DNA of 21,244 bases from an uncultured Gemmatimonadales bacterium (lineage in GTDB: Bacteria > Gemmatimonadota > Gemmatimonadetes > Gemmatimonadales > GWC2-71-9): the NCBI GenBank assembly GCA_963748815.1, contig CAVVKJ010000013.1:1-21244 (forward strand), given 5' to 3'. The position numbers were made by a program, and so were the translations under genes. Under the pieces are notes generated by a model, which worked only from the letters and a program-made list of their open reading frames with translations, made no database searches and had not been told where the DNA came from. Each line of letters starts with the position of its first letter. The first letter of the stretch is position 1. Positions 10,379 to 18,260 of the stretch are shown here, in pieces.

Positions 10379-11797
10379 ATGCGGGTAGCCACCATGGACG
10401 GCCCCGAAGTCGAACTGCCGCAGGCGGCGCTCGACGGGCTCAAGCTGCGAGTGAAGGGTCCGGTGCTCCTCCCTGGAGACGCCGGGTACGACGATTCCCG
10501 GACGGTCTGGAACGCGATGATCGACCGACGTCCGGCGCTCGTGGTGCGCTGCCTCGGCAACGCCGATGTGATCGCCTGCGTGCAGTTTGCCCGGGAGCAC
10601 CGACTGCTCCTCTGCATGAAGGGCGGAGGGCACAACATCGCCGGGCTCGCGACTGCGGACGGCGCGCTGATGCTCGACCTTTCGCTGATGCGGGGGGTGT
10701 GGGTGGATGCGAAGAAGAAGGTGGCGCGGGCGCAGGGTGGGTGCCTGCTGGCGGATGTGGATCGCGAGACGCAGGTCCACGGCCTCGCGACCGTGCTGGG
10801 GTTTGTCTCCCTCACCGGCGCCGCGGGGCTCACCCTGGGCGGTGGTTTCGGCTACCTGACCCGGCGCTGGGGATGGACCACCGACAATGTGGTCGGGATG
10901 GAGATTGTGACTGCCGAAGGGGCGCTGGTGCGGGCCAACGCCAAGGAGAACCCCGATCTCTTCTGGGGACTGCGCGGTGGAGGCGGCAATTTTGGCGTGG
11001 TCACCAGCATCGAGTACGCGCTGCATCCCGTGGGGCCGGAAGTCGTCGGCGGCGTGGTGGCGTGGCCGGCGAGCCAGGCCCCCGGCGTGCTCAAGCTGTA
11101 CCGCCGACTCGCCGACAAGGCCTCGCCCAAGCTCACGCTCGTCACCTTCATGCGCCCGGCGCCGCCCGCTCCGTGGCTGCCGAAGGAGGTGCATGGCCAG
11201 CCGATCGTCGCCATCCTCGCCTGCCACAGCGGCAAGCCGGAAGAGGGCGAAAAGGCGGTGAAGGCCATCAAGAAGTTCGGGAAGCCGGTCGGCGATATCC
11301 TTGTACGGAGACCGTACACCCAGCTCCAGAGCCTCCTCGACGGCACCCAACCGAAGGGCCGCCGCTACTACTGGAAGAGCGAGTACCTGTCGGAGGTCAC
11401 TCCGGAACTGTGCGACCGGTTCATGACGCGTGCGGCCACGATTCCGTCCCCCCATTCAGCGGTCATCCTCTTCCAGATCGGCGGCGCACTCAACAAGCTG
11501 GCCAACGCCCACTCGCCGGTGGGCAATCGGGACGCGCGCTACGTCCTGAATATCGGCGGGTCGTGGGAGCAGGCTGCAGACGATCCTGCCAATCTTGCCT
11601 GGGCGCGGGACACCTGGAGCGACCTCAAGCGTTTTTCCACCGGTGGGAATTACATCAACTTCCTGACGGAGGACGAGGGCGCCGAGCGGGTCGAGGCGGC
11701 GCTTGGGGCAGGAATGGAGCGGCTCCGGGAGATCAAGGCCCGCTGGGACCCGCATAACTTTTTCCGGACCAACCGGAACATCGCGCCGAAGGAATAG
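10379..11797 (+). CDS. FAD-binding oxidoreductase, VAO/BBE family (6-hydroxy-D-nicotine oxidase-like)
   Basis: WNAMIDRRP, KGGGHN (covalent-FAD His), GLTLGGGFG, LFWGLRGGGGNFGVVT and the C-terminal BBE motif YINF...IKARWDPHNFF. GGAGG RBS before ATG 10379. Confidence 0.93.
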   Translation: MRVATMDGPEVELPQAALDGLKLRVKGPVLLPGDAGYDDSRTVWNAMIDRRPALVVRCLGNADVIACVQFAREHRLLLCMKGGGHNIAGLATADGALMLDLSLMRGVWVDAKKKVARAQGGCLLADVDRETQVHGLATVLGFVSLTGAAGLTLGGGFGYLTRRWGWTTDNVVGMEIVTAEGALVRANAKENPDLFWGLRGGGGNFGVVTSIEYALHPVGPEVVGGVVAWPASQAPGVLKLYRRLADKASPKLTLVTFMRPAPPAPWLPKEVHGQPIVAILACHSGKPEEGEKAVKAIKKFGKPVGDILVRRPYTQLQSLLDGTQPKGRRYYWKSEYLSEVTPELCDRFMTRAATIPSPHSAVILFQIGGALNKLANAHSPVGNRDARYVLNIGGSWEQAADDPANLAWARDTWSDLKRFSTGGNYINFLTEDEGAERVEAALGAGMERLREIKARWDPHNFFRTNRNIAPKE

Positions 11798-11814
11798 CCC
11801 CTTACCCACCTCTC

Positions 11815-11844
11815 TTGACGAACGCCCTGCTTTCGGTGTATGTT
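11815..11844 (+). promoter_or_regulatory. Putative sigma70-type promoter of the mutagenesis operon
   Basis: TTGACG (11815-11820), an 18-nt spacer and TATGTT (11839-11844) in an AT-enriched intergenic segment. Confidence 0.6.
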
Positions 11845-11874
11845 CGGTTTAAGCTACCGAACAAAAGCCGAAAG
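11830..11874. promoter_or_regulatory. Symmetric operator-like palindrome, candidate SOS/LexA site
   Basis: CTTTCGG-N4-TGTTCGGT-N7-ACCGAACA-N4-CCGAAAG, with perfectly symmetric arms overlapping the -10 and the expected +1. Confidence 0.7.
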
Positions 11875-11882
11875 AGGGCGCC

Positions 11883-12047
11883 ATGCCACCCACTCCCCCA
11901 CCGCCTCCGCGGCCGCAATACCCGTCCCCACGAGCCAATCCACTGGCCTACCCCCGCATACGGGTCTGCCCCGAATGCGCCGGTCCCGTCACCCATAACT
12001 CCGGCTGCGTCACCTGCCGGGCATGTGGATGGGGAAAGTGCGGCTGA
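11883..12047 (+). CDS. 54-aa Pro-rich, Cys-rich zinc-ribbon microprotein
   Basis: MPPTPPPPPRPQYPSPRANPLAYPRIRVCPECAGPVTHNSGCVTCRACGWGKCG. AGAGGG RBS upstream; the stop overlaps the next ATG (TGATG). Too short for the ORF track. Confidence 0.8.
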   Translation: MPPTPPPPPRPQYPSPRANPLAYPRIRVCPECAGPVTHNSGCVTCRACGWGKCG

Positions 12048-13030
12048 TGGCCGCGGGGCAGGGAGGCAGCGGGGCAGGTGGGCAGTCGGTCCAGCGCGGC
12101 TCCCAACTCTCGCTCCTGCCCTGCGGCCCCGCGGCCCCGCAGCCCCGCCTCGGCGTAGCCGACAGCCGCGGCGTCTCCTTCGAATCCGTCCCGACCCGCT
12201 CCGTGCTCAACAGCCCTGCGGCCACCCACATGCCGTTCTGGTCGGTCAATCCCTATATCGGCTGCGAGTTCGGCTGCACCTATTGCTATGCCCGCGACAC
12301 TCATCGATGGACGATGGAGAGGACTGAGGGCCGAGGACTGAGGACTGAGGGCGATGCCTTTGAGAAGCGCATTCTTATAAAAACCGACGCGCCGCAGATT
12401 TTACTGCGCACGCTCGATCCAGTTCGGATCGATGGTGCGCCCATCGTCATCGGCACCGCCACCGATCCCTATCAGCCCGCCGAGCGGCGCTTCCGGATCA
12501 CCCGCGGGCTGCTCGAGTCGCTCCTCCCGCACCGCGGGCTCCACCTCGGCATCATCACCAAGTCGCCGCTCATCACCCGGGACATCGACCTCCTGGTGCA
12601 GCTCGCCGAACGCCACACCGTGAGCATCCACATCTCGCTCGCCGCCCTCGAGGGGCGGCTGGTCCGGCGCATCGAGGCCCGCTCCCCCGCCCCGCACGCC
12701 CGGCTCCGTGCGCTTAGCCGCCTGGCCGCCGCCGGCCTCGACGTCGGCCTTCTCGTGGCTCCCATCATCCCCGGCGTCACCGACGGCCGGGCACAACTGA
12801 CCGCGCTCTTCCGCGCGGCGAAGGACGCTGGCGCCCGTCGCGTGGCCGGGGAGGCGCTCCGACTCGGCCCCGCGGCGCGGCGCCACTTCCTTCCGCACCT
12901 GGCCCGCGAGTTCCCCGACCTCGCCGCGCGCTACGCCCGCCGCTACGGACAGCGGCAAACCGCGGGAAAGGACTACACGGCGGCGCTGGCACGGAGGGTG
13001 GATGCGATTCGGAGGGAGGTTGGGTTATGA
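12047..13030 (+). CDS. SplB-like radical SAM protein (Rv2578c/PA0069-like DNA-repair-associated family)
   Basis: SVNPYIGCEFGCTYCYAR (CxxxCxxC), IGTATDPYQPAE, ITKSPLITRDIDLL and APIIPGVTD. Start placed at ATG 12047, coupled to the upstream stop. Confidence 0.9.
   Translation: MAAGQGGSGAGGQSVQRGSQLSLLPCGPAAPQPRLGVADSRGVSFESVPTRSVLNSPAATHMPFWSVNPYIGCEFGCTYCYARDTHRWTMERTEGRGLRTEGDAFEKRILIKTDAPQILLRTLDPVRIDGAPIVIGTATDPYQPAERRFRITRGLLESLLPHRGLHLGIITKSPLITRDIDLLVQLAERHTVSIHISLAALEGRLVRRIEARSPAPHARLRALSRLAAAGLDVGLLVAPIIPGVTDGRAQLTALFRAAKDAGARRVAGEALRLGPAARRHFLPHLAREFPDLAARYARRYGQRQTAGKDYTAALARRVDAIRREVGL
12053..12148. repeat. Inverted pair of degenerate 8-mer tandem arrays inside the radical SAM gene
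   Basis: GCGGGGCA GGGAGGCA GCGGGGCA GGTGGGCA (12053-12084) and TGCCCTGC GGCCCCGC GGCCCCGC AGCCCCGC (12117-12148). Confidence 0.75.
12319..12353 (+). repeat. 7-mer tandem repeat (GAGGACT)x5, degenerate, intragenic
   Basis: GAGGACT GAGGGCC GAGGACT GAGGACT GAGGGCG, encoding RTEGRGLRTEG. Confidence 0.85.
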
Positions 13031-14271
13031 CCCGCTCTGTCCTGTTCATCGACCCCCCCGCCTTCTGCACCACCGTGGAGGCGCTCGTGGCCCCCGCCCT
13101 CCGCGGGCGGCCCGTCGCCGTGGCAGCGCCCGGCGCCGACCGCGCCACCGTGCTGGCGCTTTCTCCCGAGGCGCAGGCGGCCGGTATCACCCGCGGCATG
13201 CCGGTGCGTCAGGCGCAGAAGCGCTGCCCCGATCTCGCCCTCCTGCCCCCCAACCCGAAGCTCTACGCCCGCGCCTCCACCGCGCTGCACGACATCTTCC
13301 GCCGCTACGCGCCGGTCATCGAGCCCCGCGGCTACGGCCACGCCTACCTCGACGTGACCGGCACCGGCGCCCTCTTCGGCCCGCCGGTGGATGTGGCGCT
13401 CCGTATCCATCGCGAGGCGCGCAACGGCATCCGGCTCCCTGTCACCATCGGCGTCGGCGCCAACAAGCTGGTGACCACCGTGGCCGCTGGACAGCGCGAC
13501 GCGGACCACAGCGGCAATCGCGACGCCGTCGTCCCCGTGCCCGAAGGAGGCGAGGCCGCCTTCCTTTCCCCGCATCGGGTCGCACTCCTCCCCGACATCA
13601 CGGACCGAATCCGTGAACGGCTCGACGACTACCAGCTCGAACTCATCGGCGCGGTCGCCGCGGTCGGCGCCCCCGCCCTCGGCCAGGTCTTCGGCCGCGC
13701 CGGCGCCGAACTCCACGCCAAGGCGCGCGGCATCGACGCCAGCCCCGTTCTCCCCCCCGCCGTCCGGCGGGAGTTTCGCGCCGCCCATACCCTGGCCACC
13801 GACACCAACGACCTCGGCGTGCTCTTCGCCCTCCTCCGCCGACTTACCGAGCGGCTCGGCTCCAGGCTCCGGACCCGACACCTCGTCACCCGCCGGCTCC
13901 GCCTCGATCTGGCCTACGCCGACTACAGCACCAGCGGCCGCATCGTCACACTCCCCGGCGCCGCACTCGACGTGGCGCTGCTCGATGCCGCCCGCCGCGC
14001 CTTTACATTGGCCAACACCAAGCGGATCGCCGTCCGCACCGTGGCTCTCGCGGCGGAACAGCTGGCGGAAATGGATGTGCAGCTAGGCTTGTGGGACGGG
14101 GCCAGCGGCGGGGAAGCGGGAAAGCGGGGAAGCGGGGAAGCAGGACAGGAGGTCGTGATCCAGGACGCCATCGACCAGATTCGTAATCGCTGGGGGGCGC
14201 CAGGCATCGCGAGGGGAACGGCAAGGGCGCGGCCCGATCCTGTAGCACGAAATTGCGTTATCGTGCGCTAG
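13027..14271 (+). CDS. Y-family (DinB-like) polymerase homolog, probably catalytically inactive with an ImuB-like role
   Basis: VLFIDPPAF, GMPVRQAQKRCP and IGVGANKL motifs. EPRGYGHAYLDVTG stands in place of EPLSLDEAYLDVT. C-terminal QLGLW and AIDQIRNRWG. ATGA overlap with the upstream gene. Confidence 0.88.
   Translation: MTRSVLFIDPPAFCTTVEALVAPALRGRPVAVAAPGADRATVLALSPEAQAAGITRGMPVRQAQKRCPDLALLPPNPKLYARASTALHDIFRRYAPVIEPRGYGHAYLDVTGTGALFGPPVDVALRIHREARNGIRLPVTIGVGANKLVTTVAAGQRDADHSGNRDAVVPVPEGGEAAFLSPHRVALLPDITDRIRERLDDYQLELIGAVAAVGAPALGQVFGRAGAELHAKARGIDASPVLPPAVRREFRAAHTLATDTNDLGVLFALLRRLTERLGSRLRTRHLVTRRLRLDLAYADYSTSGRIVTLPGAALDVALLDAARRAFTLANTKRIAVRTVALAAEQLAEMDVQLGLWDGASGGEAGKRGSGEAGQEVVIQDAIDQIRNRWGAPGIARGTARARPDPVARNCVIVR
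14108..14147 (+). repeat. 8-mer tandem repeat (GCGGGGAA)-type, intragenic
   Basis: GCGGGGAA GCGGGAAA GCGGGGAA GCGGGGAA GCAGGACA, encoding GEAGKRGSGEAG. Confidence 0.9.
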
Positions 14272-14292
14272 GGGTGGGCGTGAGCCCACCCC
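14271..14292 (+). repeat. REP-like perfect hairpin with a GNRA loop
   Basis: GGGGTGGGC-GTGA-GCCCACCCC immediately after the stop codon, with no U-tract. Confidence 0.6.
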
Positions 14293-14347
14293 GTCTGCCG
14301 GCGCCGACGCCCCCGACCGACCCTTAGACGGGCAAAACGGAGCAAAC

Positions 14348-14890
14348 ATGGCAACCACATATTGTGAAGCAGCACGCGGCCACGAATGGCACGGCCCCTA
14401 CCACGACACCGAGTACGGCGTCCCGCTCACCGACGAGTCGGCGCTCTTCGAGCGCTTGATCCTGGAAATCAACCAGGCCGGGCTGAGCTGGCTCACCATT
14501 CTCAAGAAGCGCGACGCCTTCAAGCAGGCCTACAGCGGCTTCGATGTCGAGACGATCGCCCGCTACGGCGCCCGCGATACCGCCCGCCTGCTGGCCGACG
14601 CCGGTATCATCCGCAACCGGCTCAAGGTCGCGGCCGCCATCCACAACGCCCGGCAAGTCCTGGCGCTCCGGACGTCGCACGGCGGCTTTGCCGCCTGGCT
14701 CGATGCGCACCATCCGCTCCCCAAGGAGGAGTGGGTCAAGCTCTTCAAGCAGACCTTCCGGTTCACCGGCGGCGAAATCGTCGGAGAGTTCCTCCTCAGC
14801 ACGGGCTATCTGCCGGGGGCGCATGCACCGGATTGTCCGGCGTACAAGCGGATTCTCAAATTGAATCCGCCCTGGAAGCGACCGATATGA
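14348..14890 (+). CDS. tag: DNA-3-methyladenine glycosylase I
   Basis: YHDTEYG, LFERLILEINQAGLSWLTILKKR and GIIRNRLKV motifs. Zn ligands are present: N-terminal C and H, C-terminal HAPDC. GGAG RBS. Confidence 0.95.
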   Translation: MATTYCEAARGHEWHGPYHDTEYGVPLTDESALFERLILEINQAGLSWLTILKKRDAFKQAYSGFDVETIARYGARDTARLLADAGIIRNRLKVAAAIHNARQVLALRTSHGGFAAWLDAHHPLPKEEWVKLFKQTFRFTGGEIVGEFLLSTGYLPGAHAPDCPAYKRILKLNPPWKRPI

Positions 14891-15047: not shown

Positions 15048-18000
15048 GTGTTCACTCACCTGCACGTCCACACTCATTTCTCCTTCGGCTTCGGCGCCTC
15101 CAGCCCGGCAGCGCTGGTCGAGGCCGCCATCGCGCGCGGCTTCCGCACCCTCGCCTGTACCGACACCAACGGCGTATACGGAGCGGTGGAGTTCCAGCAG
15201 GCCGCCGAGTCGGCGGGCATCCGCCCCATCCTCGGCGCGCACCTGCAACTCGGTAACCAGGACGCAATCGCGCTGGCGACAGACGAGAAGGGCTGGGGGG
15301 CGTTGTGCCGGGCAGTAACACAGATCCACTGGGGCGGAGGCGGGGAAGCGGGGAAGCGGGGAAGCGGGGAAGTCTCGTTGGCCGAGATTGTCGCGCCTGA
15401 CCGGAACGGCCTGATCCTTCTTTCCCGCTCGATTGCGTTCCTCGAGCGTGTCCGTGCGCTGAGCGGACCCGGCGACCTCTACGCCGAACTGGTGCCGGGC
15501 CGCGAACGGCACGGCGTGCTGGCTGCCGCGCGGCGGGTGGGCCTGCCCGCCGTGGCCACCAACGCCGTCGCCTTCGCCAACCCAGAAGACTGGGCCCGCC
15601 ACCGGCTGCTGGTCGCAATCGGCAACAACACGACATTGACGGCGTTGGAGGCAGCACCGGCCCCGCTTCCCCGCTTCCCCGCTTCCCCGCCAAACTCTTG
15701 GCTTCGCCCGGCAAGCGACCTGTTCCACAACTTCCCCGACTGTCCCGAGGCCCTCACCGCCGCGGACGAGATCGCCGACCGGTGCCGCTGGCGCATTCCG
15801 CTCGGCCGAGTCGTGCCGCCGCGGATGACCGACCGCACCGATGCCTTCGAGCAACTCCGCGCGCTCGCCTATGCCGGCGCCGAGCGGCGCTACGGCACCG
15901 TGGCGCCCGTCACCCGCGACCGCCTGGAGCATGAGCTGGCCATCATCGGGATGAAGGGATTCTCGGACTACTTCCTCGTGGTGCACGACATCGTCGCCCA
16001 CGGCCCCACCCACTGCGGCCGCGGCTCCGTCGCCAATTCGGTGGTGAGCTACTGTCTCGGCATCACCCACGTGGAGCCCCTCGGCGCCGGGCTTCTCTTC
16101 GAGCGATTCCTCAACCCGGCGCGCACCGACCCGCCGGACATCGACCTCGACTTCCCCTGGGATGAGCGGGACCGCGTGCTGGCCTATGTCTTCCGCCGCT
16201 ACCCATTCCCCCGCGCGGCGATGGTGGCCAACCACAACTGCTTCCGGCTCCGCGGCGCGCTCCGCGAGGTGGCCAAGGTGCATGGCCGCCCCGCCGGCGA
16301 AATCCGCGAGGTCACCCGACGCATCCCCTGGTATCACGAGGGGGAACCGCTCGACAGCCTCCTCGCCACCCACCCGAATTTCCAGGGACTCGACCTGCCG
16401 AAGGCGTGGCAGGGCTTCGCGCGCGAGGCGGAACCGCTGGTCGGCGTGCCCAGGCACCTATCGCTGCATCCCGGTGGCGTGGTCATCGTGCCGACGGCGC
16501 TGACCGATCACGTGCCGCTGGAGCGTGCCGTCAAGAAGCTCGACGGTGCACCGGAACTGACCGTCCCCGTCATCCAGTTCGAGAAGGACGGCGCCGAAGA
16601 CGCCGGCCTCGTCAAGATCGATCTCCTCGGCAACCGCTCGCTCGCCGTCATTCGCGACGCCATCAGTGCGGTGCGTGCAAACACCGGACGCCAGATCGAC
16701 TATACCTCGCAGGACGCGGGCGACGACCCAGCCACGAAGGCGCTCTTCCGCACCGGGCAGACGATGGGCGTCTTCTACACCGAGAGTCCCGCGTCGCGGC
16801 AGCTCTGCGCCAAGTCCCGCGCCGATACCTTCGAGTTACTGGTGCTCAACACCAGCATCATCCGCCCTGCGTCGAACCGTTTCATCCGGCAGTACCTGTC
16901 GCGGCTGCACGGCGAACCCTATGAGCCGCTCCACCCCGTGCTCCGCGACACCCTGGCGGAGACCTTCGGGATCATGGTGTACCAGGAGGACGTGGTGCAC
17001 GTGTGCCAGGCGTACGCCGGGATGTCGCTGGCCGACGCCGATGGCCTCCGCAAGTCGCTGCAGAAGAAGCGCCCCGCCAAGCTGCTGGCGTCGTACGCGC
17101 AGGAGTTCCTCCGGGGCGCCCGCTCTCTCGGCCGGGACGACGCCGTCACCGAGCAGGTCTGGCAGATGGTGATGTCCTTTTCCGGCTACAGCTTCTGCAA
17201 GGGGCACTCGGCATCGTACATCCAGGTGGCGCAGCAGGCCTGCTACCTCCGCGCCAACTACCCGGCGGAGTTCATGGCCGCGGTGCTCGCCAACGGCGGC
17301 GGCTTCTATCACCCGTTCGCGTACGTGGCCGAGGCGCGGCGGATGGGCGTCACCATCCTGCCGCCGGACGTGAATGCCAGCGAGATCCGCACTACTGGCA
17401 ACGGGAACGAACTGCGGATCGGACTGCAGTTCATTACGAGCCTGTCGGCAAAGGGCGCCGAGTCAATCACATCGGCACGCTGCGTGGACGTCCCCCCTCT
17501 CCATATCATGGAGAGGGGGACAGGGGGTGAGGTGGAACAGCCGGGCAGGGAGGCCGGGAGGCAGGGAGGCGGCACGGAAGCAGGGACGAACAGCATGGAC
17601 CCCGGCTTTCGCCGGGGTGACAGCGCGCCGCGGAGAACGCCGTATCACGACCTCTCCGATCTCCACGTTCGCGCACGCCTGTCGCACGACGATCTCCGCA
17701 CGCTGATCAAGGCTGGCGCCTGCGACAGCATCGCCCACGGGATGACCCGGCCGATGATGTTGTGGATGGTGGACAGCGGGGAGGCGGGAAAGCGGGGAAG
17801 CGGGGAGGTGGAGTTCCTTCCCCGCATCCCCGCGTCCCCGCCTCTGCCCGATTACTCAGCGGAGCGCTGCCGCCAGGACCAGTACTCCGCCCTCGGCTTC
17901 CTCACCGCACATCATCCAATGGCGCTCTACGCGGACCGCTTGCGGCGCTTCCGGCTGGTGAAGAGCCCCGACCTGCCGAGGCACATCGGCCAGAGCGTCG

Positions 18001-18260
18001 TGCTGGCCGGGATGCTCACCACCGCCAAGCCGGTGCATACGGCCGCTGACGAACCGATGCAGTTCGCCACCTTCGACGACGGCGACGGACTGGTGGAGGC
18101 CGTGCTGTTTCCGGAGGTGTATCGAAAGCGGGGGCACGTGTTGTTCGACCAGGGCCCCTTCCTCATCCGCGCGAAGGTGGAGGAGGAGTTCGGGGCCATC
18201 ACCGTGACCGTGACCCACCTTGAACGGGTGGACCGGATGCTGGCCCGGCAGGGCGCCTGA
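15048..18260 (+). CDS. dnaE2: Error-prone DNA polymerase III alpha subunit (DnaE2-type)
   Basis: PHP domain HLHVHT...TDTNG with degenerate ATNAVAF. GRGSVANS, LLFERFLN, catalytic PPDIDLD, KIDLLG and YSFCKGHS, then an OB fold with a short C-terminus. Located in a damage-response cassette. Confidence 0.93.
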   Translation: MFTHLHVHTHFSFGFGASSPAALVEAAIARGFRTLACTDTNGVYGAVEFQQAAESAGIRPILGAHLQLGNQDAIALATDEKGWGALCRAVTQIHWGGGGEAGKRGSGEVSLAEIVAPDRNGLILLSRSIAFLERVRALSGPGDLYAELVPGRERHGVLAAARRVGLPAVATNAVAFANPEDWARHRLLVAIGNNTTLTALEAAPAPLPRFPASPPNSWLRPASDLFHNFPDCPEALTAADEIADRCRWRIPLGRVVPPRMTDRTDAFEQLRALAYAGAERRYGTVAPVTRDRLEHELAIIGMKGFSDYFLVVHDIVAHGPTHCGRGSVANSVVSYCLGITHVEPLGAGLLFERFLNPARTDPPDIDLDFPWDERDRVLAYVFRRYPFPRAAMVANHNCFRLRGALREVAKVHGRPAGEIREVTRRIPWYHEGEPLDSLLATHPNFQGLDLPKAWQGFAREAEPLVGVPRHLSLHPGGVVIVPTALTDHVPLERAVKKLDGAPELTVPVIQFEKDGAEDAGLVKIDLLGNRSLAVIRDAISAVRANTGRQIDYTSQDAGDDPATKALFRTGQTMGVFYTESPASRQLCAKSRADTFELLVLNTSIIRPASNRFIRQYLSRLHGEPYEPLHPVLRDTLAETFGIMVYQEDVVHVCQAYAGMSLADADGLRKSLQKKRPAKLLASYAQEFLRGARSLGRDDAVTEQVWQMVMSFSGYSFCKGHSASYIQVAQQACYLRANYPAEFMAAVLANGGGFYHPFAYVAEARRMGVTILPPDVNASEIRTTGNGNELRIGLQFITSLSAKGAESITSARCVDVPPLHIMERGTGGEVEQPGREAGRQGGGTEAGTNSMDPGFRRGDSAPRRTPYHDLSDLHVRARLSHDDLRTLIKAGACDSIAHGMTRPMMLWMVDSGEAGKRGSGEVEFLPRIPASPPLPDYSAERCRQDQYSALGFLTAHHPMALYADRLRRFRLVKSPDLPRHIGQSVVLAGMLTTAKPVHTAADEPMQFATFDDGDGLVEAVLFPEVYRKRGHVLFDQGPFLIRAKVEEEFGAITVTVTHLERVDRMLARQGA
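15340..15371 (+). repeat. (GCGGGGAA)x4 perfect tandem repeat in the dnaE2 PHP domain
   Basis: Four exact copies, encoding GEAGKRGSGE. Confidence 0.92.
15659..15690 (-). repeat. Same 8-mer array in reverse orientation in dnaE2
   Basis: GGCCCCGC followed by (TTCCCCGC)x3, encoding APLPRFPASP. Confidence 0.9.
17493..17532. repeat. REP-like palindromic element inside dnaE2
   Basis: CCCCCTCTCCAT-ATC-ATGGAGAGGGGG (12-bp perfect stem) followed by ACAGGGGGTGAGG. Confidence 0.8.
17540..17571 (+). repeat. Degenerate 8-mer array (GGGAGGCN) inside dnaE2
   Basis: GCCGGGCA GGGAGGCC GGGAGGCA GGGAGGCG. The GGGAGGCA unit also occurs at 12061. Confidence 0.65.
17596..17621. repeat. REP/RPE-like palindrome inside dnaE2
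   Basis: TGG-ACCCCGGC-TTTC-GCCGGGGT-GAC, an 8-bp perfect stem with a GAAA loop on the minus strand, encoding MDPGFRRGD. Confidence 0.75.
17776..17841. repeat. Head-to-head inverted 8-mer arrays in dnaE2
   Basis: GCGGGGAG GCGGGAAA GCGGGGAA GCGGGGAG, a 10-nt spacer, then TTCCCCGC ATCCCCGC GTCCCCGC. Confidence 0.88.

Follow-up and report, generated by a model that had tools for sequence, protein, structure and literature searches.

A frame of 54 codons at positions 11883–12047 on the forward strand of the DNA analysed here (the window, a 21,244-nucleotide stretch from an uncultured Gemmatimonadales bacterium) is a genuine protein-coding gene of Gemmatimonadales. It encodes a six-cysteine zinc-ribbon microprotein, recognized by its translation, an NCBIfam match, and its conservation. 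Sequence comparison supports the C-terminal 29 residues as a free-standing homolog of the six-cysteine zinc-finger tail of the class II ribonucleotide reductase (RNR) NrdJ, and supports the gene as the first cistron of a putative LexA-controlled (SOS) operon. More tentatively, the microprotein may work in trans, as a Zn-anchored dithiol module for the radical SAM enzyme encoded next in the operon.

The frame translates as MPPTPPPPPRPQYPSPRANPLAYPRIRVCPECAGPVTHNSGCVTCRACGWGKCG and has a Pro-rich N-terminus followed by C29-x2-C32-x9-C42-x2-C45-x2-C48-x4-C53-G and the stop codon. Residues 1–25 are variable and Pro-rich, with a PTxY...NPL motif; residues 26–54 form the conserved NrdJ-tail-like domain. 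A Shine–Dalgarno-like AAGAGGG, read from the sequence, is found at 11872–11878 (+), 4 nt 5' of the ATG, and GAGG-type stretches precede the ATG in most related loci. The TGA (12045–12047) overlaps the in-frame ATG of the radical SAM ORF at 12047, as TGATG. The sequence-only reading had described a hidden microprotein with an RBS, an ATG, a Pro-rich start, and a stop overlapping the radical SAM start, and was right in all of these elements.

Relatives of the microprotein are seen in 89 stretches of public genomes, of which 80, nearly all from Gemmatimonadales MAGs, were kept. The gene stands at the same place in these relatives, and its ORF is intact in 79 of the 80 loci; in the exception (L048) it is frame-shifted into the radical SAM gene. 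C29, C32, C42, C48, and C53 are invariant in 77/77 unique domain sequences, and C45 in 76/77. Third codon positions vary freely at invariant residues (G34 is encoded by four codons), and the codon comparison yields a mean pS of 0.56 and a mean pN of 0.16 (ratio 0.28), hence the cysteines are under purifying selection. Thirteen short homologs (44–67 aa) are present in the protein collection. Other assemblies already have the microprotein called as a gene, under the name of hypothetical protein or, wrongly, "ribonucleoside-diphosphate reductase alpha chain"; in the ESM Atlas it falls in unnamed "hypothetical protein" clusters and one viral cluster named for an IBR domain (11% of its members). 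A match to the microprotein profile is found in 121 of 125 sampled genomes of one Gemmatimonadales family, a count that includes NrdJ tails.

Given this pattern, the probability that the frame is no functional gene is practically negligible, whether it be read as an ORF arising by chance, as a uORF with a regulatory role, or as what is left of a decayed nrdJ 3' end. The ORF is indeed short, the Pfam scan of it gives no match, there being no Pfam family for it, and it has no RNA contig in four runs, a point that proves nothing. However, conservation over the 77 unique sequences is frame-specific, with synonymous changes at invariant residues, the ORF is intact nearly everywhere, and the gene callers of other assemblies predict it; the codon analysis rules out a chance ORF. 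As for a decayed nrdJ, the likeness is confined to the last 29 codons, with none upstream, and the preceding gene, which ends at 11797, encodes an FAD/BBE oxidase and is not RNR-related.

Contigs from RNA libraries, which may contain DNA, were considered over 11500–14400 in the same four runs. Near-identical ones are found over portions of the radical SAM gene and across its boundary with imuB (12602–13208); none covers 11883–12047, which carries no weight either way for the microprotein.

The NCBIfam scan of the microprotein (P0001) lists only two models. NF006417 (vitamin B12-dependent RNR) aligns residues 25–54 with profile positions 730–759 of 759 (E 2.7e-7), at 29.2 bits, far below the cut-off of 961 bits, as expected for a fragment-sized match. 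The other, NF041910 (HVO_0416 family zinc finger protein), was rejected at E 0.0048 and 16.8 bits against a cut-off of 80. The match at the extreme end of NF006417 bears out the resemblance to the C-terminal zinc ribbon of class II RNR claimed from the letters alone. A search with the microprotein profile yields 596 matches at E<=1e-3, a mix of free-standing 40–100-aa proteins and C-termini of NrdJ (776–1333 aa); longer fused forms were not seen in a word-based search, which is weak evidence. The AF2 model has three short strands with a domain pLDDT of about 77–81, and the best PDB matches in the fold search with this model are Zn ribbons, none of them significant (best E 0.51).

Most dimeric class II RNRs end in a six-cysteine zinc finger, whose motif and role have been described (Loderer et al. 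2017, PMC5704485; this and the other papers are cited here from part of their text). By this account, all six cysteines are needed and electrons can pass between subunits, as shown experimentally; the whole CRD, expressed separately, does not reconstitute truncated NrdJ in vitro; and the physiological reductant of the finger is still unknown (PMC5704485). In predicted structures of the NrdJ finger (Burnim et al. 2022, PMC9669993), four cysteines coordinate Zn and a pair of cysteines sits at the far end. By analogy, C29, C32, C45, and C48 of the microprotein would hold one Zn, while C42 and C53 would form a redox-active pair at the opposite end.

The microprotein shares with the NrdJ tails the six cysteines in the pattern C-x2-C-x9-C-x2-C-x2-C plus a last Cys at the chain end, and the extreme C-terminal position. 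The x4 spacing before the last Cys is also that of the NrdJ tail from the same genome; the tail of S. nassauensis NrdJ (Cys 920/923/933/936/939/945) has one residue more here (PMC5704485). The differences lie in the context. The NrdJ finger ends an enzyme of 830–930 aa and is preceded by an IscU-like part (PMC5704485, PMC9669993), whereas the microprotein has 54 aa in total, lacks the preceding 150–220-aa CRD body with its IscU-like part, and does not form the terminus of NrdJb or of an RNR alpha chain. Its Pro-rich N-terminus carries its own PTxY...NPL motif, lacking in the NrdJ tails compared here; its signature is CGWG(K/R)CG, against CG(F/Y/W)SKC in NrdJ tails; and its gene, part of an SOS operon, is on a different contig from nrdJ. 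In the split NrdJa+b of the Pseudomonas aeruginosa type, a class II RNR tail domain likewise has its own gene, which implies that the module can work in trans. NrdJb, however, is the whole CRD (IscU-like domain and Zn finger) and forms one enzyme with NrdJa (PMC5704485, PMC9669993), while the microprotein is the final finger only and is linked to the radical SAM/ImuB/DnaE2 operon.

Homology to the NrdJ tail, together with the experimental transfer of electrons between subunits (PMC5704485), is consistent with a microprotein that mimics this tail: made during the SOS response, it would deliver electrons to the NrdJ active site or vie for them there, and thereby adjust how much dNTP is available to repair and translesion synthesis. 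A NrdJ whose tail is complete occurs in 121/131 genomes of the same family (95/98 of the high-quality ones) and in all five genomes that have the microprotein and no radical SAM gene (see below); free-standing homologs also occur in a phage genome region (L120), where manipulation of host dNTPs would make sense. We nevertheless consider this role unlikely. In four genomes, G108 (98% complete), G341, G321, and G365, the microprotein is found (E 1e-17 to 1e-21) but NF006417 matches no RNR chain at E<=1e-5, the sole match in G365 being the tail of the microprotein itself; neither of the two sampled genomes of genus g26 has NrdJ. Moreover, the microprotein does not have the rest of the CRD, and it is only 34% identical to the tail of the NrdJ of its own genome, which ends ...CPDCSSQLEYAEGCMKCHVCGFSECG and whose gene is on a different contig, with no linkage between the two. 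The modulation of NrdJ in trans, proposed in the sequence-only reading, is weakened by the four genomes with the microprotein and without detectable NrdJ.

The region upstream of the gene contains a sigma-70-like promoter, TTGACG-18-TATGTT, at 11815–11844 (+), with one site found against 0.1 expected in shuffles; the TTGAC element of the -35 region is seen at the same place in related loci. A putative LexA box, the direct repeat TTCGG-N6-TTCGG at 11832–11847 (+), overlaps the -10 hexamer. Its inverted partner CCGAA-N6-CCGAA at 11857–11872 (+) forms with it an inverted repeat with 19-nt arms (11830–11848 and 11856–11874, 84% complementary). The box or its inverse is found no more than 260 nt upstream of the microprotein in 78/81 cases. 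In this genome it has 12 matches, including two in tandem before lexA and one before recA, whose products score 214.8 bits with TIGR00498 (LexA) and 554 bits with TIGR02012 (RecA). Since the box is common to the microprotein gene, lexA, and recA, the operon is likely to belong to the SOS regulon, in agreement with the earlier proposal that the microprotein heads an SOS operon. Neither this microprotein nor a LexA box of Gemmatimonadota was met with in our literature searches.

The microprotein is followed, in this order, by genes for a spore photoproduct lyase (SPL)-like radical SAM enzyme, an ImuB-like protein, Tag, and DnaE2. The SplB/SPL-like enzyme of the Rv2578c family (12047–13030, +) matches NF038135 (E 1.2e-69, 234.8 bits; cut-off 430) and PF04055. 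The ImuB-like Y-family polymerase homolog (13027–14271, +; IMS and IMS_C domains) has GYGHAYLD where active polymerases carry the catalytic Asp-Glu, which we take to be a loss of catalytic residues. The DNA-3-methyladenine glycosylase I (Tag)-like protein (14348–14890, +) matches TIGR00624 at E 4.7e-35, below its cut-off, and its gene is conserved in 18 related loci; the DnaE2-type homolog of the error-prone DNA polymerase III alpha subunit (15048–18260, +) matches NF004225 (E 7.1e-169, 564 bits; cut-off 939). The downstream part is an operon of a known kind, with a LexA-box-controlled SPL-like radical SAM gene (SplB-like, COG1533, Rv2578c/PA0069), an inactive Y-family homolog, and DnaE2, as in the known ImuA-less imuB-dnaE2 cassettes (PMC8565304, PMC3765255, PMC3919608). 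A small Zn-ribbon cistron before splB is not found in the cited parts of these three papers; here, it occurs in nearly all sampled genomes of one family.

The place of the microprotein and the radical SAM gene upstream of imuB might suggest that the microprotein functionally replaces ImuA in an ImuB-DnaE2 mutasome devoid of it, as was proposed earlier. The genome (86% complete) has no ImuA, the sole match to NF033429 being RecA, and among the 48 loci with at least 5 kb of downstream sequence, 37 contain an ImuB-like gene. The pair of the microprotein and the radical SAM gene is, however, found without an ImuB-like gene in 10 of these 48 loci, which weakens the reading, and in genome G102, which has the microprotein, the only Y-family homolog is 30% identical and no DnaE2 reaches the cut-off. 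ImuA and ImuA' have a RecA-like fold and are obligate companions of imuB-dnaE2, whereas the microprotein is a 29-residue Zn ribbon without this fold, and no ImuA or ImuA' model matches it in the NCBIfam scan. Substitution for ImuA is hence disfavoured, and we regard it as very improbable.

The link to the radical SAM enzyme is the best supported. This gene lies downstream on the same strand in 78/80 loci, and in 47/48 of those with at least 5 kb downstream; the homology to it begins at or before the microprotein stop in 24/79 cases and within 300 nt in 33 more. One fused product (P0044) is seen in addition to the frame-shift fusion of L048. Nineteen GTGA start/stop overlaps were set aside as evidence of coupling, since GTGA arises of necessity wherever a GGG glycine codon precedes the TGA. 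The pairing is facultative, not obligate. Five f1 genomes that are 95–99% complete (G102, G193, G038, G154, G227) have the six-Cys microprotein and no radical SAM homolog at E<=1e-5, with the LexA box seen before the microprotein in four of them; locus L073 has no radical SAM gene within 6 kb. Conversely, two f1 genomes (G039 and G078) have the radical SAM gene without the microprotein, as do 32/34 of the non-f1 loci examined (f2, f4–f9, and one f3 genome); in both groups the orthologs carry the same LexA box.

The cysteine pattern of the enzyme differs between these groups. In 59/59 aligned microprotein-linked enzymes, and in 3/3 further f1 and two f3 enzymes, only the cluster cysteines Cys73/77/80 are conserved, and none has a Cys at residue 155, 237, or 269. 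In the microprotein-less family f2, 16/22 enzymes have a Cys at both 237 and 269 and 2/22 at 269 only, while Cys155 is present in 5/5 enzymes of families f4–f7. Residues 237 and 269 are at matching positions on consecutive strands (E233–240 and E265–270) of the enzyme model (pLDDT 84). The nearest solved fold is that of spore photoproduct lyase (PDB 4fhc/4fhg; E 1.3e-5 for 4fhg, the best match, to 2e-5, TM 0.45–0.57); the relation in sequence is remote, and searching PDB sequences with a profile of the radical SAM alignment yields no match at E<=0.01. SPL relies on an active-site cysteine as hydrogen-atom donor, and the PDB titles of its structures list C140A and C140S mutants. The f1 enzymes, unlike SPL, have no conserved cysteine beyond the cluster ligands, hence the idea of a cysteine provided in trans. 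The complementarity is one-directional, as nine microprotein-less enzymes (four of genus g45, L102, L212, L213, L218, and L219) also have no extra Cys; and since the contrast maps onto few clades, it may reflect only one to three evolutionary events.

These observations are consistent with the following scheme. Upon DNA damage LexA would leave the TTCGG-N6-TTCGG operator, and the microprotein would be translated just before the SPL-like enzyme, often coupled to it. It may then act in trans as the cysteine module of this enzyme, i.e., as a hydrogen-atom or electron donor or a dithiol shuttle; the enzyme in this clade, with no conserved Cys beyond the three [4Fe-4S] ligands, would be served in this way. 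The redox or electron shuttle for the radical SAM enzyme, suggested in the earlier reading, remains the best-supported function, given the 78/80 linkage and the Cys pattern, while the implied link to the enzyme is not obligate. As the microprotein persists alone behind the SOS promoter, it may serve a second client too.

Rather than being a reductant, the microprotein could be the substrate or radical carrier of the radical SAM enzyme, i.e., a RiPP-like precursor or a mini glycyl/thiyl-radical domain. Classic RiPP loci have a small Cys-rich peptide beside a radical SAM gene, the RiPP maturase SkfB ranks seventh among the fold matches of the enzyme, and the C-terminal CGWG of the microprotein presumably resembles the Zn-finger-plus-glycine loop of class III RNR. 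The Zn fingers of class II NrdJ and class III RNR do look alike (PMC9669993). Still, this reading seems very unlikely. RiPP precursors and maturases (e.g., of the SCIFF type) combine SPASM or auxiliary cysteines with a conserved leader and a variable, modified core; here, the three conserved Cys in 59 enzymes imply no SPASM or auxiliary cluster, and the conservation is reversed, with a variable N-terminus and an invariant C-terminus. The nearest solved fold is a lyase for spore photoproduct, the neighbours are DNA-repair genes with no protease or exporter among the operon genes scanned, and the enzyme is widespread without the microprotein. A related variant of the trans-acting module, a detachable cofactor, would have the C42/C53 pair or else, as in the glycyl-radical domain of class III RNR, the glycine of the CGWG loop carry a hydrogen atom or radical for an SPL-like enzyme that lost its catalytic Cys. 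We consider it quite improbable; if true, two different 5'-deoxyadenosyl-radical enzymes would be served by one type of module, in cis in the case of NrdJ and in trans in that of the repair enzyme.

The facultative pairing also bears on whether the microprotein has a client in the operon at all. An SOS-induced Zn ribbon might have an independent role, e.g., in regulation, as a checkpoint factor, or as an adaptor that binds protein or DNA, and merely share the LexA promoter of the operon. The LexA box is the only near-invariant companion of the gene (78/81 cases) and is also present at the orphan copies L104, L105, L107, L111, and L073; the microprotein exists without the radical SAM gene and also without detectable NrdJ; the conserved N-terminal PTxY...NPL suggests a docking site of its own; and Zn-ribbon proteins are seen in other SOS neighbourhoods (PMC3765255). 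On the other hand, the microprotein keeps all six cysteines, also those two which bind no Zn in the NrdJ model; their spacing and the C-terminal end are identical as well. A purely structural ribbon is disfavoured, because it would not need all six, and in most genomes the gene tightly adjoins the radical SAM gene. An independent role is thus possible but rather unlikely, and the trans-acting dithiol module remains the reading we tentatively prefer.

To our knowledge, earlier descriptions of the six-cysteine finger of class II RNR all treat it as part of that enzyme. The free-standing copy under putative DNA-damage control suggests that the six-cysteine module is portable, and provides a small, tractable protein for studying the reduction and docking of the finger. 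TTCGG-N6-TTCGG becomes a candidate LexA operator for Gemmatimonadota, and the SOS regulon would gain an unannotated cistron. For the widespread, uncharacterised SOS-regulated SplB-like radical SAM enzymes, these results offer the hypothesis that they may need a cysteine donor, with Cys155, or Cys237 plus Cys269, acting in cis, or else the microprotein in trans.

The ORF at 11883–12047 (+) translates to MPPTPPPPPRPQYPSPRANPLAYPRIRVCPECAGPVTHNSGCVTCRACGWGKCG. An AAGAGGG stretch, the ribosome-binding site, ends 4 nt 5' of its ATG on the same strand, and its TGA stop shares bases with the in-frame ATG of the next ORF in a TGATG overlap (12045–12049, +), all as described in the sequence-only reading. 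The resemblance to the NrdJ tail noted there proves measurable: residues 25–54 align to the last 30 positions of NCBIfam NF006417 (vitamin-B12-dependent RNR) with E 2.7e-7; a Pfam search with the microprotein matched no family. The protein collection contains 13 homologs of 44–67 aa, and searching a single genome for each species yielded 89 relatives, 80 of which were kept; the source labels of the kept records are all of the Gemmatimonad kind except two, Actinomycetota (L016) and delta proteobacterium (L083). Of the 80 loci, 79 keep an intact frame; at L048, a frame shift carries it into the next gene. Conservation was analyzed in the 29-codon domain of these 80 sequences (77 unique). Here, C29, C32, C42, C48, and C53 are invariant, and position 45 is Cys in 76/77, with L079 as the exception. 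Codon choice at the invariant residues varies, with four codons used for G34 and both TGC and TGT for each Cys; mean pS is 0.56 vs. pN 0.16 (ratio 0.28). Hence the conservation of the ORF in relatives and the selection on its cysteines, which the sequence-only reading proposed to look for, are both seen: the gene is conserved, under selection, and homologous to the six-cysteine finger of NrdJ, and the chance that it is not a gene is practically negligible.

A decayed 3' end of nrdJ, the alternative raised earlier, was excluded: only 11958–12044 of the contig matches the RNR model, and the upstream gene encodes an FAD/BBE oxidase ending at 11797. The nrdJ of the same genome is on a separate contig (C10), and its tail is just 34% identical to the microprotein. 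This nrdJ (C10:854699–857195 (-); locus L003, 474–2985) is interrupted by a frame shift, which is due either to misassembly or to breakage of the gene: it is read as two overlapping ORFs (552 and 342 aa) that lie in separate frames, the nrdJ of relatives being one ORF of 830–930 aa. In public sources, the microprotein is named a hypothetical protein or mislabelled as an RNR alpha chain, and a literature search found no paper describing it.

Passages of Loderer et al. (2017; PMC5704485) describe a C-terminal cysteine-rich domain (CRD) ending approximately 70% of the NrdJ sequences investigated, with six conserved cysteines in the last residues, all required for TCEP-driven NrdJ turnover; the tail binds Zn, and the model given there has Cys 920/923/936/939 on Zn and 933/945 as the redox pair. 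The same passages report that thioredoxins and glutaredoxins failed to reduce the tail, and that in Pseudomonas the CRD is encoded by its own gene, NrdJb. As outlined in parts of Burnim et al. (2022; PMC9669993), the CRD consists of an IscU-like domain and a six-Cys finger, the latter similar to the class III RNR finger. By analogy, Zn would be bound by C29/C32/C45/C48 of the microprotein, with C42/C53 as the redox pair. Its AF2 model shows three short strands (domain pLDDT 77–81); the top PDB fold matches are Zn ribbons, none significant. The N-terminus (residues 1–25, window 11883–11957) is variable in both length and sequence but retains a PTxY...NPL motif, whose P20 is seen in 90% or more of 14 sequences. 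In a divergent subgroup (e.g., proteins P0033, P0073, P0090, and locus L111), the N-terminus instead begins M-(L/I/V)-(I/V)-S-(L/F/Y)-P-L-(L/I). Either N-terminus could be a docking motif.

A promoter, TTGACG-18-TATGTT (+), lies upstream of the microprotein, as do a TTCGG-N6-TTCGG box (11832–11847, +), 5' of the ribosome-binding site, and, 3' of this box, its inverse CCGAA-N6-CCGAA (11857–11872, +). In 78/81 cases, the 260 nt preceding the zinc domain contain at least one of the two box halves. The direct pattern has 12 matches in the genome vs. approximately six by chance (our own arithmetic, equiprobable bases). Two tandem copies precede lexA (C10:85463–85503; LexA identified by TIGR00498, 214.8 bits), and one precedes recA (contig C14:123043; RecA identified by TIGR02012, 554 bits); the remaining matches fall within coding sequence or precede gcvH or a kinase-like ORF. 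Outside f1, the window's own family, the box is upstream of the radical SAM gene in 34/34 loci examined (loci L092–L103 and L195–L214 listed for the box). Given these positions before lexA, recA, and the radical SAM genes, the box with its inverse can be read as the Gemmatimonadota LexA operator. In its period of 11, the box resembles GTTC-N7-GTTC, the repeat of alphaproteobacteria; a literature search found no description of this Gemmatimonadota box. Of the earlier claim that the microprotein heads an SOS operon, the box itself stands, being common to lexA and recA, and SOS control is putative, as judged from the motif.

The gene downstream encodes a radical SAM enzyme of the Rv2578c family (NF038135, E 1.2e-69, below the family cut-off), and the nearest solved structure to its AF2 model (pLDDT 84) is spore photoproduct lyase (SPL) 4fhg, E 1.3e-5. 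The following Y-family polymerase homolog (13027–14271, +) is probably ImuB-like and inactive, because GYGHAYLD, read by eye, replaces what we take to be the catalytic Asp-Glu of active Y-family polymerases. Farther downstream is a DnaE2-type polymerase (NF004225, E 7.1e-169, below cut-off). Between the two lies a Tag-like 3-methyladenine glycosylase gene (14348–14890, +; TIGR00624, E 4.7e-35), an unusual insert for a mutasome cassette, kept there in 18 related loci. A search for ImuA in this genome (86% complete) found only RecA matching the ImuA model. That the microprotein stands in for ImuA is very unlikely.

The radical SAM gene is downstream on the same strand in 78/80 loci, the exceptions being L024, where the contig ends, and L073; among loci with 5 kb or more of downstream sequence, 47/48 have it. 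In 24/79 cases, its homology region begins no later than the microprotein stop, and in another 33 it begins at most 300 nt beyond; other genes sit in between in 22/79. In one subclade (L018, L020, L021, L026, L027, L030, L036), one to four extra genes follow the microprotein; by eye, the inserted genes appear to encode DinB/YfiT-type, PEP-mutase/isocitrate-lyase-type, and ORF6N-type proteins. The database protein P0044 (partial, 194 aa, one cysteine replaced) is a microprotein–radical SAM fusion, and at L048 (6001–7206) the microprotein frame continues into the enzyme, with the frame shift before C48; both may stem from sequencing errors or be genuine, if rare, fusions.

The most telling evidence for a partnership is the cysteine pattern of the enzymes (residues counted from the ATG at 12047). 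In the 59 aligned microprotein-linked ones, in three further f1 enzymes, and in two of family f3, only the cluster cysteines 73/77/80 are conserved, and positions 155, 237, and 269 are never Cys. In contrast, among 22 enzymes of sister family f2, where the microprotein is absent, 16 carry Cys237 (INCMPVLPG) together with Cys269 (ACALRL), and two carry Cys269 only; enzymes of families f4–f7 have Cys155 (TRxCLE) in 5/5. Residues 237 and 269 occupy matching positions of consecutive strands in the AF2 model (E233–240, E265–270), which makes a cis cysteine pair plausible. A role of the microprotein as a substrate or radical carrier is hardly probable. Speaking against an obligate partnership, some enzymes lack both the microprotein and the extra cysteines: those of four f2 genomes of genus g45, of L102, L212, and L213, and of f1 genomes G039 and G078. 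Since the cysteine contrast follows clades, it reflects few independent events.

In the phylum sample of 301 genomes (tallies include G057, G097, G157, and G182, flagged unpublished, and, for NrdJ, also G308), the microprotein profile matched 121/125 f1 genomes, often twice, by the microprotein and the NrdJ tail; none of the individual claims depends on the unpublished genomes. In other families, most of the matches listed are in open frames of approximately 450 to 1,700 residues, i.e., NrdJ tails. The radical SAM family (E<=1e-40) is found in 103/125 genomes of f1, 43/69 of f2, 20/23 of f6, and 39/47 of f7. NrdJ is nearly universal in f1, with 121/131 genomes (95/98 high-quality ones) having it. 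Among 1.84 billion representatives, the profile had 596 matches at E<=1e-3, a mixture of NrdJ C-termini and many free-standing 40–100-aa proteins. A Lys-rich subgroup was traced in metagenomes to approximately 40 loci with free-standing copies (L115–L155); at L156–L194, 38/39 matches end an NrdJ-length or contig-cut NrdJ frame. The Lys-rich free-standing copies (...CPECGxxVIHESGCVxCPSCGWGxCG) come from anaerobic-digester metagenomes; L130 and L145 have two copies each, and in the one long locus examined (L120, 4953–5135) the copy is flanked by a ParB/MT-A70 methylase gene on one side and by phage terminase and portal genes on the other.

Five f1 genomes (95–99% complete) have the six-Cys microprotein and, at E<=1e-5, lack any homolog of the radical SAM enzyme; NrdJ is intact in 5/5, a close ImuB ortholog is found in 1/5, DnaE2 above cut-off in 2/5, and a LexA box before the microprotein in 4/5. 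Modulation of NrdJ by the microprotein is unlikely, as G108, G341, G321, and G365 keep the microprotein with no match of the RNR model to an RNR chain at E<=1e-5, the match in G365 being to the microprotein's own tail only. Thus, each candidate client is missing somewhere, and the LexA box is nearly always present; an independent SOS function of the Zn ribbon is less improbable, though still doubtful. Tentatively, we favor a trans-acting module providing a Zn-anchored cysteine or dithiol, which may serve mainly the co-transcribed SPL-like radical SAM enzyme.
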